Below are positions 2,282-21,516 of a stretch of DNA of 64,000 nt, one piece after another. A model generated the notes under the pieces. That model was not told the DNA's origin and did not search any database. It worked only from the letters and a program-made list of their open reading frames with translations. The first letter of the stretch is position 1, and each line of letters starts with the position of its first letter. Origin of the DNA: Escherichia coli (lineage in GTDB: Bacteria; Pseudomonadota; Gammaproteobacteria; Enterobacterales; Enterobacteriaceae); the NCBI RefSeq assembly GCF_003334255.1, contig NZ_QOWU01000011.1; one strand, written 5' to 3'. The position numbers were made by a program, and so were the translations under genes.

Positions 2282-3571
2282 ATGGAAACGACTCAAACCA
2301 GCACGATTGCGTCGAAAGACTCTCGTAGTGCCTGGCGCAAGACAGACACCATGTGGATGCTGGGCCTTTACGGCACGGCAATCGGCGCGGGCGTGCTGTT
2401 CCTGCCAATCAACGCCGGTGTTGGCGGTATGATCCCGCTGATCATCATGGCTATCCTTGCGTTCCCGATGACGTTTTTTGCTCACCGCGGCCTGACTCGC
2501 TTCGTACTGTCTGGTAAAAACCCGGGCGAAGACATCACCGAGGTTGTAGAAGAACACTTTGGTATTGGCGCAGGTAAACTGATTACCCTGCTCTACTTCT
2601 TCGCTATCTACCCGATCCTGCTGGTTTATAGCGTGGCAATCACCAATACCGTTGAAAGCTTCATGTCTCACCAGCTGGGTATGACGCCACCGCCGCGTGC
2701 GATTCTGTCGCTGATCCTGATCGTGGGTATGATGACCATCGTTCGCTTCGGTGAGCAGATGATCGTTAAAGCGATGAGTATTCTGGTATTCCCGTTTGTT
2801 GGCGTACTGATGCTGCTGGCTCTGTACCTGATCCCGCAGTGGAACGGCGCTGCACTGGAAACGCTGTCTCTGGACACTGCATCTGCAACCGGAAACGGTC
2901 TGTGGATGACCCTGTGGCTGGCAATTCCGGTAATGGTGTTCTCGTTCAACCACTCTCCGATCATCTCTTCTTTCGCCGTTGCGAAGCGTGAAGAGTACGG
3001 CGATATGGCAGAACAGAAATGCTCGAAGATCCTGGCATTCGCACACATCATGATGGTGCTGACCGTAATGTTCTTCGTCTTCAGCTGTGTACTGAGCCTG
3101 ACTCCGGCAGACCTGGCTGCGGCTAAAGAGCAGAACATCTCGATTCTGTCTTACCTGGCTAACCACTTTAACGCACCGGTTATCGCGTGGATGGCTCCGA
3201 TTATCGCGATTATCGCTATCACCAAATCCTTCCTCGGTCACTACCTGGGCGCACGTGAAGGCTTCAACGGTATGGTGATTAAATCTCTGCGTGGTAAAGG
3301 TAAGTCTATCGAAATCAACAAGCTGAACCGTATCACTGCGCTGTTCATGCTGGTAACGACCTGGATTGTTGCCACCCTGAACCCGAGCATCCTGGGTATG
3401 ATTGAAACCCTGGGCGGTCCAATCATCGCGATGATCCTGTTCCTGATGCCGATGTACGCAATTCAGAAAGTACCGGCAATGCGTAAGTACAGCGGTCACA
3501 TCAGCAACGTATTCGTTGTCGTGATGGGTCTGATTGCAATCTCCGCAATCTTCTACTCTCTGTTCAGCTAA
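2282..3571 (+). CDS. sdaC: Serine:H+ symporter (HAAAP family)
   Basis: 429-aa polytopic membrane ORF with GGAG RBS; recognised as SdaC; followed by sdaB. Confidence 0.95.
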
Positions 3572-3628
3572 GTCCTTTCGCGCCGCTTTCGGGCGGCGCT
3601 TCCTCCGTTTTAACGCGATGTATTTCCT

Positions 3629-4996
3629 ATGATTAGCGTATTCGATATTTTCAAAATCGGCATTGGCCCTTCCAGTTCTCATACCGTTGGACCAATGAAA
3701 GCGGGTAAACAATTTACCGACGATCTGATTGCCCGTAACCTGCTTAAAGACGTGACCCGCGTGGTGGTTGACGTGTACGGCTCGCTCTCTCTGACCGGTA
3801 AAGGCCACCACACTGATATCGCCATTATTATGGGCCTGGCGGGTAACCTGCCGGATACCGTGGATATCGATTCCATCCCCAGTTTTATTCAGGATGTGAA
3901 TACTCATGGTCGCCTGATGCTGGCAAACGGTCAGCATGAAGTGGAGTTCCCGGTTGATCAGTGCATGAACTTCCACGCCGACAACCTTTCTCTGCATGAA
4001 AACGGTATGCGCATTACCGCGCTGGCGGGCGATAAAGTCGTTTACAGCCAGACTTACTACTCTATTGGCGGTGGCTTTATCGTTGATGAAGAGCATTTTG
4101 GCCAGCAGGATAGCGCACCGGTTGAAGTTCCTTATCCGTACAGTTCAGCAGCCGATCTGCAAAAACATTGTCAGGAAACCGGGCTGTCACTCTCTGGCCT
4201 GATGATGAAAAACGAGCTGGCGCTGCACAGCAAAGAAGAGCTGGAACAGCACCTGGCGAACGTCTGGGAAGTCATGCGCGGCGGTATTGAGCGCGGTATT
4301 TCCACCGAAGGCGTGTTGCCTGGCAAACTGCGCGTTCCACGCCGTGCTGCGGCACTACGCCGGATGCTGGTCAGCCAGGATAAAACCACCACTGACCCGA
4401 TGGCGGTTGTTGACTGGATCAACATGTTTGCACTGGCAGTGAACGAAGAGAACGCTGCTGGCGGTCGCGTGGTGACTGCGCCGACTAACGGTGCGTGCGG
4501 GATTATCCCGGCAGTTCTGGCGTACTACGACAAGTTTATCCGCGAAGTGAACGCTAACTCACTGGCTCGTTACCTGCTGGTAGCCAGCGCCATTGGTTCT
4601 CTTTATAAGATGAACGCGTCGATTTCTGGTGCTGAAGTGGGTTGCCAGGGTGAAGTTGGCGTGGCGTGCTCAATGGCGGCGGCTGGTCTGGCAGAACTAT
4701 TAGGCGCAAGCCCGGCGCAGGTGTGCATCGCGGCGGAAATCGCCATGGAGCACAACCTCGGTCTGACGTGTGACCCGGTCGCCGGACAGGTACAGGTGCC
4801 ATGCATCGAGCGTAACGCCATTGCGGCAGTAAAAGCGGTGAACGCCGCACGTATGGCGCTGCGCCGTACCAGCGAGCCGCGCGTCTGCCTCGATAAAGTT
4901 ATCGAAACCATGTACGAAACAGGTAAAGATATGAACGCCAAGTACCGCGAAACCTCTCGCGGCGGCCTGGCAATGAAGATCGTTGCCTGCGATTAA
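3629..4996 (+). CDS. sdaB: L-serine dehydratase 2 (Fe-S)
   Basis: 455-aa ORF recognised as SdaB; sdaCB operon arrangement. Confidence 0.95.
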   Translation: MISVFDIFKIGIGPSSSHTVGPMKAGKQFTDDLIARNLLKDVTRVVVDVYGSLSLTGKGHHTDIAIIMGLAGNLPDTVDIDSIPSFIQDVNTHGRLMLANGQHEVEFPVDQCMNFHADNLSLHENGMRITALAGDKVVYSQTYYSIGGGFIVDEEHFGQQDSAPVEVPYPYSSAADLQKHCQETGLSLSGLMMKNELALHSKEELEQHLANVWEVMRGGIERGISTEGVLPGKLRVPRRAAALRRMLVSQDKTTTDPMAVVDWINMFALAVNEENAAGGRVVTAPTNGACGIIPAVLAYYDKFIREVNANSLARYLLVASAIGSLYKMNASISGAEVGCQGEVGVACSMAAAGLAELLGASPAQVCIAAEIAMEHNLGLTCDPVAGQVQVPCIERNAIAAVKAVNAARMALRRTSEPRVCLDKVIETMYETGKDMNAKYRETSRGGLAMKIVACD

Positions 4997-19038: not shown

Positions 19039-19050
19039 GCACAGAACCGG

Positions 19051-19080
19051 GTCGGATAAGACGTTCGCGTCTCATCCGAC
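19051..19080. repeat. REP-like palindrome between convergent csdE and tcdA
   Basis: gtcggataagacg ... cgtctcatccgac, 13-bp arms with one mismatch. Confidence 0.4.
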
Positions 19081-19088
19081 CTGATTGT

Positions 19089-19895
19089 TTAACCCTGACG
19101 CGCCGCTTTCGCCATCATCTTCTTCAGCGCATGAGAAACCGCAACAAACCCAAAGGTGGCGGTCACCATCGTTGCCGCGCCAAATCCAGATGCACAATCC
19201 ATCCGCTTCGGCCCTTCTGCCGTGGCTTTCATCGCACACACCGTACCGTCTGACTGCGGGTACACCAGCGCTTCAGTAGAAAACACGCAATCCACGCCGA
19301 GCTTACCTTTACTGTTTTTCACTACGCCAAAATCGCTTTTCAGGCGCTCGCGCAACTTCGCCGCCAGCGGGTCCTGAATCGTTTTCGCCAGATCGGTAAC
19401 CTGAATCTGCGTCGGATCAATCTGCCCACCCGCGCCACCGGTTGTGACCAGTGGGATTTTATTGCGCCGACAATAAGCAATCAGCGCCGCTTTGGGCCGT
19501 ACACTATCAATGGCATCAATCACGTACGAATAACCCACGCTCATATACTGCGCTACGTTATCCGGCGTCACGAAATCATCCACCACCGTTACACGGCACT
19601 CCGGGTTAATCTGGCGAATACGCTCCGCCATAACTTCCGCTTTTGCCAGCCCAACGTTATCGCGCAGGGCATGAATTTGCCGATTGGTATTGGTGACGCA
19701 CACATCATCCATATCGATAAGCGTGATTGCGCCAATCCCCGTGCGCGCCAGCGCTTCCGCCGCCCAGGAACCGACACCACCGATACCAACCACACAAATA
19801 TGCGCGTCAGCAAACAGTTGCAACGCTTTTTCACCATACAGACGCGCTGTGCCACCAAAACGCTGACGCCATGCATCACTAATTACCACAGACAT
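19089..19895 (-). CDS. tcdA: tRNA threonylcarbamoyladenosine dehydratase (E1-like ThiF/MoeB fold)
   Basis: 268-aa ORF with GIGGVGS nucleotide-binding motif; recognised as TcdA (CsdL/YgdL). Confidence 0.9.
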   Translation of the reverse strand: MSVVISDAWRQRFGGTARLYGEKALQLFADAHICVVGIGGVGSWAAEALARTGIGAITLIDMDDVCVTNTNRQIHALRDNVGLAKAEVMAERIRQINPECRVTVVDDFVTPDNVAQYMSVGYSYVIDAIDSVRPKAALIAYCRRNKIPLVTTGGAGGQIDPTQIQVTDLAKTIQDPLAAKLRERLKSDFGVVKNSKGKLGVDCVFSTEALVYPQSDGTVCAMKATAEGPKRMDCASGFGAATMVTATFGFVAVSHALKKMMAKAARQG

Positions 19896-19948
19896 AGCAC
19901 CTCAGAATTAAAAAGGGCGAGGTTATCCCTCACCCTAAACGCATAAAT

Positions 19949-20046
19949 GCCTGATGCGCTACGCTTATCAGGCCTACATAACTCCTGCAATATTTTGGAT
20001 TTGCATGATTTGTAGGCCGGATAAGGCGTTCACGCCGCATCCGGCA
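19949..20046. repeat. BIME: two REP elements in the tcdA-mltA intergenic region
   Basis: gcctgatgcgctacgcttatcaggcctac (19949-19977) and gtaggccggataaggcgttcacgccgcatccggca (20012-20046), both classic REP. Confidence 0.75.
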
Positions 20047-20133
20047 TGAACAACGCGCACTTAGTCAATAATCAGGATGTGAGGTTACCCCTCACCCTGT
20101 CATATCCGTAAAAACGGCATACAGAATATCACA

Positions 20134-21231
20134 TCAGCCGCTAAAGACGTTACCTGCGCCCGGGGCGGTTTTCAGCACCCAGACACGTCCATAGTGGTTG
20201 TACCAACCTGCGCGGTGTCCGGCTTCCGGCCCGATCCCTTGATAGATATCGAAGTGTTGGCCTTTGATTGCACCACCGACATCCAGCGCCACCATCAGAC
20301 GCAGTTCGTACTGACCATTAAATTTGCCGTTATTATCCAGCAACGGCACTTCTGCCAGCAAGGTAGTACCTGGCGGAATAATGGAACGATCAGAGGCAAC
20401 TGACGCGCGACCAACCAGCGGCACCGCACTTGCCCCTTTCACCGGAGCAAAAGATTGCGGTTTAAAGAAGACGAAAGACGGGTTCTGTTCCAGCAGCTCG
20501 CGAACCTCGGCTTCACTGTGTGTTTCGCCCCAGTGACGAATCGCCTGCATCGACATATCTTCTTTTTTCACTTCGCCACGGTCGATCAGCACCTTACCAA
20601 TGCTGCGATAGGCATGACCGTTTTTCCCTGCATAGCTGAAAAAGTTAAGCGGACTGCCATCACCAAAGTCGATATACCCACTACCCTGCACATCCATAAT
20701 GAAGTTATCCATCAGGGAGTTACTGTAAGCGAGAATATATTTATCACTCAATGCCCCCGCGTAGATCTCCGCACGAGACGGCAGACGACCACGTTTTGGC
20801 GGCATACGGTAAATAGGATACTGGAACTCGCCCTGGCGGGTATGGCGCGCCTGAATTACCGGCGTGTAATAACCGGTAAACTGCACGTTACCATAGTTGT
20901 CGGCACCTTCCATCTGCCAGGCATCAATGCCGAACTGGCGCATATTGCGGGTATCACCGCCTGCGCGCAGCCACTCTTGCACCGCGTTATAAACATTACT
21001 CTGGTTGCCATACAGACGCGGTGACGAATTACGGATATGGTTAATTTGCTCGGCAAAATCACCGGCGTTAATCGGCGCGCCAACGGCATCTGGCTGGTTC
21101 ACCAGAGAGAAAGGCTGGGTAAATTTCCCGTCTTTATATTGCTGTCCGCGATCGGTTGGTTTGGAAGAGCAGGCGGCAAGCATTGCCACAACCGTGCCCA
21201 TAAGAAGGTACTTTACCCAACGTCCTTTCAT
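20134..21231 (-). CDS. mltA: Membrane-bound lytic murein transglycosylase A (lipoprotein)
   Basis: 365-aa ORF from ATG 21231 (MKGRWVKYLL... with lipobox LAAC). The 508-aa track ORF is an upstream extension through the tRNA promoter. Confidence 0.9.
   Translation of the reverse strand: MKGRWVKYLLMGTVVAMLAACSSKPTDRGQQYKDGKFTQPFSLVNQPDAVGAPINAGDFAEQINHIRNSSPRLYGNQSNVYNAVQEWLRAGGDTRNMRQFGIDAWQMEGADNYGNVQFTGYYTPVIQARHTRQGEFQYPIYRMPPKRGRLPSRAEIYAGALSDKYILAYSNSLMDNFIMDVQGSGYIDFGDGSPLNFFSYAGKNGHAYRSIGKVLIDRGEVKKEDMSMQAIRHWGETHSEAEVRELLEQNPSFVFFKPQSFAPVKGASAVPLVGRASVASDRSIIPPGTTLLAEVPLLDNNGKFNGQYELRLMVALDVGGAIKGQHFDIYQGIGPEAGHRAGWYNHYGRVWVLKTAPGAGNVFSG

Positions 21232-21439: not shown

Positions 21440-21516
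<77 letters not shown>

Follow-up and report, generated by a model that had tools for sequence, protein, structure and literature searches.

Why is a pair of inverted REP elements in the tcdA-mltA intergenic spacer of Escherichia coli bracketed by two nearly identical 18-mers? The locus lies within a 64-kb (64,000-nucleotide) stretch of E. coli DNA that we analysed as a whole, hereafter "the window". An earlier note, made from the sequence alone, had pointed out the 18-bp near-perfect direct repeat around this BIME and proposed that it was either a composite repeat or the footprint of an insertion or duplication event, since REP/BIME elements are not known to generate target duplications. Its observation proved correct: GAGGTTAYCCCTCACCCT is present at both places that the note gave, as GAGGTTATCCCTCACCCT on the left and GAGGTTACCCCTCACCCT on the right, the two copies match at 17 of 18 positions in direct orientation and start 162 bp apart, and the two REPs lie between them where the note placed them. 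Allowing up to three mismatches, these are the only two matches on either strand of the window, whereas 0.03 matches are expected by chance and 0 of 100 shuffles gave two.

We next asked how far the repeat extends and what it is. Both copies share the preceding G and a polymorphic Y, which makes the repeat 20 bp, and if a 2-nt indel is allowed the whole 23-nt hairpin AGGGYGAGG-TTAYC-CCTCACCCT is repeated. The repeat is itself a stem-loop. Read on the minus strand, which is the transcribed strand of both flanking genes, the left (tcdA-proximal) copy is AGGGTGAGG-GATAA-CCTCGCCCT followed by TTTTAATT, giving a 9-bp stem, a 5-nt loop and a T-run (TTTT AATT), and a terminator scan identified it as the predicted intrinsic terminator of mltA. 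RNA folding gives the right (mltA-proximal) copy the same stem with a 2-nt AU bulge, but this copy has no T-run. The 18-mer is therefore most of a terminator stem-loop that is present twice. The tcdA start codon lies only about 19 nt downstream of this terminator and no promoter-like site was found in 19700-20300, suggesting that tcdA expression may depend on read-through of the terminator or on a promoter inside mltA, in which case alleles with and without the element could differ in tcdA expression.

Table 1. Features of the tcdA-mltA spacer and its surroundings, in window coordinates.
Feature	Position	Strand	Description	Basis
tcdA coding sequence	19089..19895	-	ATG at 19895-19893; Shine-Dalgarno GAGG at 19903-19900	ORF list; RefSeq annotation of identical DNA
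T-run of the mltA intrinsic terminator	19910..19913	-	AAAA on the + strand	Terminator scan; sequence
Direct-repeat copy 1	19914..19936	-	Complete terminator hairpin, -17.2 kcal/mol; contains the 18-mer at 19919-19936	Sequence; terminator scan; RNA folding
BIME-1 element	19937..20073		137 bp, between the two hairpin copies	Profile search
Left outer motif of BIME-1	19937..19948	+	AAACGCATAAAT	nhmmer profile built from 7 full-length copies
Y-type REP	19949..19978	+	Ends in CTAC(A)	Sequence; profile
L linker of BIME-1	19979..20010	+	32 nt	Sequence; profile
Z1-type REP	20011..20046	+	GTAG on its 5' side	Sequence; profile
Right outer motif of BIME-1	20047..20073	+	TGAACAACGCGCACTTAGTCAATAATC	Sequence comparison; profile
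Direct-repeat copy 2	20074..20098	-	Same hairpin with a 2-nt AT bulge (20077-20078), -14.7 kcal/mol; contains the 18-mer at 20081-20098	Sequence; RNA folding
Small 4-bp hairpin	20106..20117	-	CCGTTTTTACGG on the minus strand, between the mltA stop codon and copy 2; present in both long and short alleles	RNA folding; allele comparison
mltA coding sequence	20134..21231	-	TGA stop at 20136-20134	ORF list; RefSeq annotation of identical DNA
Rfam matches	19970-20012 (-), 20015-20051 (+), 19050-19094 (+)		ES036/CssrF match across the L linker (first interval); sub-threshold naRNA4 matches on REPs	Rfam scan
Lone REP-like palindrome	~19046-19083		GGTCGGATAAGACGTTCGCGTCTCATCCGACC, between the convergent genes csdE and tcdA	Sequence
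tRNA-Met (CAT) gene	21440-21516	+	Only one copy between mltA and amiC	Rfam scan; sequence

The DNA between the two hairpins is a single, extragenic BIME-1 element at the 3' end of the mltA transcription unit, with one Y and one Z1 REP in inverted orientation. The flanking stretches that are not REP also belong to the repeated element: the right-hand stretch recurs beside the same kind of REP pair at other loci at 87-93% identity, and since it is a conserved outer motif of the family, we rejected the idea that a separate donor locus had supplied this 33-bp non-REP stretch. A profile built from seven full-length copies at other loci defines a 152-nt unit, 5'-GAGAMTGATGRC AAACGCAAAAYT [Y REP] L [Z1 REP] TGAACAACGCGCACTTTGTCAACAATCTG-3', and matches the window over profile positions 13-150 (E = 5e-43); the terminal 12 nt of the family consensus (GAGAMTGATGRC) are thus missing from the left end at this locus. 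The ends of the family consensus, GAGAATGATGACAAA and, in reverse complement, CAGATTGTTGACAAA, agree at 12 of 15 positions as imperfect inverted repeats, although the window's copy lacks the left one. The 32-nt linker aligns with the L linker of other copies, and by eye we did not find in it a clean match to the IHF consensus. In the predicted fold of the 3' untranslated region the two REPs pair with each other, and the whole region folds with z = -5.6. Searching the window for further BIME-1 copies returned none. Rfam gave only REP-derived sRNA families and one tRNA, none of which explains the repeat; the ES036/CssrF match scores above its gathering threshold (46.5 against 37.6 bits), and these sRNA families appear to be models of REP/BIME sequence.

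To test whether the element and the repeat are present or absent together, we compared the spacer across 5426 complete E. coli genomes. Of these, 2755 carry the full 651-bp query region, and every other chromosomal locus listed spans 489 bp (a few 488 bp), exactly 162 bp less. The short alleles read ...AATTAAAAAGGG[T/C]GAGGTTA[C/T]CCCTCACCCTGTC..., which is one intact hairpin with its T-run. About half of E. coli genomes therefore lack the BIME together with exactly one repeat copy, the result expected of an insertion footprint. Neither condition that the note had set against its own idea was fulfilled: a 32-mer that covers the hairpin occurs at one place per genome (median 1, maximum 2), and strains without the BIME carry one copy, not two. 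Of the note's two readings, the footprint of an insertion or duplication event is thus supported, while a composite repeat is rejected because the 18-mer is specific to this locus and is not part of the dispersed element. The note had not seen that the repeat is the mltA terminator hairpin, that the non-REP stretches on both sides belong to the element, or that the pattern recurs at other BIME-1 sites.

We then asked which state came first. Salmonella enterica has one homologous hairpin, AGGGGTGAGGAATAACCTC[G/A]CC followed by a T-run, directly upstream of tcdA. E. albertii has the BIME-1 at the same left junction, shares the motif variants AAACGCATAAAT and GCGCACTTAG, and has a diverged second hairpin, AGCGAGATTATTTCTCACTCT. 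In one E. coli strain (locus L017 of our collection; L numbers denote collected loci or contigs) both copies are identical over 20 bp, GTGAGGTTATCCCTCACCCT, and Escherichia sp. MOD1-EC7003 has at least 7 tandem units of period 162 at this locus (L046 and L040). Another contig with a 97%-identical TcdA (L056) was uninformative, as it offered only 70 bp upstream, with a REP and no hairpin. These data indicate that insertion with duplication predates the coli/albertii split and that the E. coli short alleles are later losses. The losses recurred: short alleles carry three hairpin variants (T..C, T..T and C..T), the flanking haplotypes of short and long alleles are interleaved, and the MLI106K3 short allele differs from the TUM13867 long allele at only 9+2 flank sites and carries exactly that allele's left-copy variant. 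At the tkt locus of E. whittamii (L028, 4560-4760) and in E. albertii (L014, 3430-3452), compensatory changes keep both duplicated hairpins paired (GAGCCGC/GCGGCTC against GGGCCGC/GCGGCCC, and GCGAGA/TCTCAC against GTGAGG/CCTCAC), which hints at selection on the structure of both copies.

To determine whether the pattern is general, we scanned species-representative genomes with a 20-nt BIME-1 motif, which returned Escherichia loci, and added the best hits at other loci from BLAST searches of E. coli. Among 26 independent BIME-1 loci or arrays, 14 are flanked by locus-specific direct repeats of 14-29 bp with unrelated hairpin sequences. The left copy lies within 2 nt of the element end at 11 of the 14 loci and the right copy at 13 of the 14, in at least seven loci the repeat spans exactly the predicted hairpin, and the repeats usually begin with A or AA and end with T or TT. 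For the first 21 loci we compared 40-nt left and right flanks in direct orientation with a cross-locus null (mean score 5.9, maximum 15): observed scores reach 22, 12 of the 21 exceed the 99th percentile, and the Mann-Whitney p is 5e-8. The five E. coli loci added afterwards served as a small validation set, of which two were positive (mog-satP and ydgA-uidC) and three negative (obgE-dacB, dppA and entD-fepA). At most loci the loop sequences agree in direct orientation, so an inverted duplication of the hairpin is rejected. One exception to simple duplication followed by point mutation is L045 (3985-4134), where the flanking repeats have identical stems (AAGCGGC...GCCGCTT) but unrelated 7-nt loops (ATTGTTA against CAGGACA). 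At L038 (5230-5440), a perfect 10-bp direct repeat, TCAGGAGAAT, lies outside a structure of hairpin, BIME-1 and a different hairpin, and may be a nested or different kind of event.

Empty alleles with a single hairpin were found at three further loci. At tkt/prohibitin, the occupied allele is 621 bp (1365 genomes) and the empty allele 448 bp, 173 bp shorter, with a single AAAAAAAGGGCCGCTTTCGCGGCCCTT; a two-unit allele of 795 bp, 174 bp longer, has the order hairpin, BIME, hairpin, BIME, hairpin in E. coli GF4-3 (L053), showing that amplification through the flanking repeats is not confined to MOD1-EC7003. At mog-satP, the occupied allele is 382 bp (467 genomes) and the empty allele 212 bp, 170 bp shorter, with a single AAAAAAATCCCCCCGAGCGGGGGGAT; here the occupied allele is the minority state, which suggests a gain within E. 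coli. At ydgA-uidC, the occupied allele has a 29-bp repeat (1751 genomes) and the empty allele a single AAAACGCCGGAGATTTTTCTCTCCGGCGTT followed by a T-run. No other states were seen at mog-satP or ydgA-uidC. At all four loci, counting tcdA-mltA, occupied and empty alleles differ by the element plus one hairpin copy. The yhaJ locus of Escherichia sp. E1V33 has a perfect 22-bp repeat, but typical E. coli has a different downstream gene and terminator there, so it did not give a clean empty-site comparison.

The explanation that best accounts for these data, to which we assign a probability of roughly three in four, is that a BIME-1 element inserted at the intrinsic terminator of mltA in an ancestor of E. 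coli and E. albertii and duplicated the whole 20-23-bp stem-loop, leaving one copy on each side. Because the duplication length varies and follows the hairpin, rather than a fixed spacing set by an enzyme, we infer that the two strands were broken at the two feet of the hairpin, possibly while it was extruded as a cruciform, in which the feet lie next to each other, and that gap filling of these breaks, staggered by the length of the hairpin, made the target-site duplication. In this view, the copy next to tcdA keeps the T-run, so mltA would still terminate and the insertion would do little harm, and at convergent gene pairs each gene would keep a hairpin with its own A-run or T-run. Direct repeats flanking a long palindrome would also make the 162-bp unit unstable, with slippage or unequal exchange either removing it cleanly or amplifying it into tandem arrays. 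Several observations sit less easily with this model. Twelve of the 26 loci show no flanking repeat, and several of these have a terminator hairpin abutting one end only (obgE-dacB, dppA and L048), so duplication is not obligatory or has decayed; the imprecise left end of the window's copy fits a copying mechanism better than a clean cut; the only enzyme linked to REPs belongs to a family reported to leave no target repeats; and the boundary between duplication and element is uncertain by about 2 nt because the targets are flanked by A and T runs. The analysis itself establishes the duplication, its polarity, the states with zero, one and many units, and the recurrence at other loci, whereas how the strands are broken and by which enzyme is inferred, with no transposase known that would recognize the outer ends and no insertion event observed; transcription termination at the hairpins is likewise inferred from sequence, and IHF binding by the linker or action of a RAYT on the element could be inferred only by analogy with the respective families.

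The strongest alternative, which we consider unlikely but cannot exclude, is copy-choice insertion, in which a replication fork stalled at the terminator hairpin, the nascent strand switched to a BIME-1 template elsewhere or to an excised single-stranded copy, and then switched back upstream of the hairpin and copied it a second time, making the duplication a by-product of template switching. Hairpins and long palindromes are known to stall replication, the element at this locus is truncated by 12 nt at exactly the hairpin boundary in all species examined, only about half of the loci carry a duplication, and junction positions vary by 1-6 nt. On the other hand, most copies end at the same nucleotides, 5'-GAGAMTG...CAATCTG-3', which argues for defined cleavage, no donor-flank sequence is carried along at any of the loci read, and the repeats abut the element ends within 2 nt at most positive loci. 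Much less likely is the reverse polarity within E. coli, with the short allele as the retained ancestral state and the long allele spreading by recombination: both alleles are common (about 51% and 49%), E. coli recombines freely and the flanking haplotypes are mosaic, but because E. albertii and MOD1-EC7003 share the insertion with the same junction and motif variants, this would require a polymorphism maintained across speciation, and the three short-allele hairpin variants, one of which matches the left copy of its nearest long haplotype, also argue against it. Finally, although terminator hairpins are G+C-rich palindromes that can resemble one another and the cross-locus null reaches a score of 15, a chance resemblance, an older tandem duplication of the terminator into which the BIME later landed, or a dispersed composite repeat is contradicted by the two copies in the window against 0.03 expected, the single place per genome, loops identical apart from one polymorphic base, the single copy in Salmonella and all empty alleles, and the same architecture at 14 loci.

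Several known systems share parts of this behavior. The element has the organization of BIME-1, also called RIP or RIB (Gilson, Bachellier, Hofnung; Boccard and Prentki; Oppenheim and Rudd), and BIME-1 elements are known to be present or absent among isolates (Bachellier 1997, as cited in PMC1187871). None of the texts that we could read, which did not extend to Gilson et al, 1991, Calcutt et al, 1999, or Bachellier et al, 1997 (Genetics 145:551), the paper most likely to have seen the pattern, mentions defined outer ends with imperfect terminal inverted repeats or a duplicated terminator hairpin, and literature searches for BIME or REPIN together with direct repeats, target duplication or terminators found no description of it. 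As in the REPIN-RAYT system (Nunvar 2010; Bertels and Rainey 2011; Ton-Hoang 2012), the inverted REP doublet with GTAG/CTAC forms a long predicted hairpin of the kind regarded as a non-autonomous mobile unit, and tandem REPIN clusters with repeated flanks have been noted in Pseudomonas. However, RAYT (TnpA-REP), the only enzyme linked to REPs, belongs to the IS200/IS605-type Y1 family, which is reported to act on single strands and to leave no target repeats, and in vitro it cuts at CTAC inside the BIME and not at the outer ends, whereas here the mobile unit is about 152 bp, extends 24-30 nt beyond each REP and carries a 14-29-bp duplication. Bacterial MITEs are likewise short and non-coding, with flanking direct repeats, and are present or absent among strains; their terminal inverted repeats are matched only imperfectly by the ends of the BIME-1 family consensus, one of which the window's copy lacks, and their duplications are short and of fixed length, while those described here are long, vary in length, coincide with hairpins and are missing from about half of the copies. 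The closest match in behavior is IS1630 of Mycoplasma fermentans (IS30 family; Calcutt, Lavrrar and Wise 1999), which is reported to duplicate inverted repeats of 16-26 bp on insertion, so that the length of the target duplication is set by a palindrome in the target. IS1630 is an autonomous IS that encodes a DDE transposase, while BIME-1, at 137-152 bp, is too short to encode one, and has an unrelated sequence and a different host. Finally, Tn10 and Tn5 undergo transposase-independent precise excision by slippage between target duplications, stimulated by their inverted repeats, and loss of the element plus one repeat copy restores the original site, matching the 162-bp, 173-bp and 170-bp deletions seen here; with repeats of 18-29 bp rather than 9 bp, loss should be more frequent.

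More tentatively, and on odds slightly below even, BIME-1 elements, the E. coli REPINs, may integrate specifically at intrinsic terminator hairpins and duplicate the whole stem-loop, so that each flanking gene would keep a working terminator. The hairpin-length duplication would then be the first sequence signature of the long-unknown REP/BIME insertion step, would be hard to reconcile with simple single-strand Y1 transposition, and would also explain the clean gain, loss and tandem amplification of these elements, including arrays in one Escherichia lineage in which 152-nt BIME-1 units alternate with captured terminator hairpins. REP/BIME elements make up a noticeable share of E. coli non-coding DNA, and how they reach new sites is still described as unknown in a 2026 preprint. 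A reproducible footprint makes that question accessible to experiment, as it specifies the target (the hairpin feet), predicts the break geometry, and provides pairs of occupied and empty alleles, with single-hairpin empty sites in thousands of genomes. It also suggests why the elements are tolerated: insertion would regenerate a complete terminator beside each neighboring gene, and the flanking repeats would allow clean reversal, so that the elements behave as reversible modules in 3' untranslated regions. For annotation, a second terminator-like hairpin just upstream of a BIME-1 should be read as a duplicate and not as an independent signal.

Some of the collected contigs show further arrangements. 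In MOD1-EC7003, contigs L036, L039 (693-1956), L041, L042-L044 and L047 carry tandem arrays of full 152-nt BIME-1 units separated by 8-26-nt hairpin spacers, and the same spacers (AGGCCGrGTTCGGCCT, AGCCTCCAAAAGGAGGCT, GAACGCCACGATCTGTGGCGTT and AGCCGCCT) recur in arrays on different contigs, suggesting that units of BIME plus hairpin move or recombine between loci, unless the assembly has collapsed repeats. On another contig, L037 (oriented 3056-4463), twelve BIME units are fused head to tail with a 5-nt overlap (AACGC), a period of about 114 nt and no outer motifs, and the whole array is flanked by a 23-bp hairpin repeat, AAYGGAGCCTTTCGGCTCCGTTA. Two tiny contigs in Bacillota assemblies, from Alkalicoccobacillus porphyridii (L025, 264 bp) and Bacillus coahuilensis (L031, 807 bp), carry an Escherichia-type BIME-1 with identical right flanks, probably reflecting E. 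coli contamination of those assemblies. K-12 MG1655 has three tandem tRNA-Met genes (metZ, metW and metV) where the window has one, so the source strain may carry a contracted tRNA array. At the rsmS-mscK locus of E. coli RM9975 (L006), the BIME-1 is cut off at profile position 50, next to IS110-family and IS3-family transposase fragments, which fits the known targeting of REPs by IS elements.
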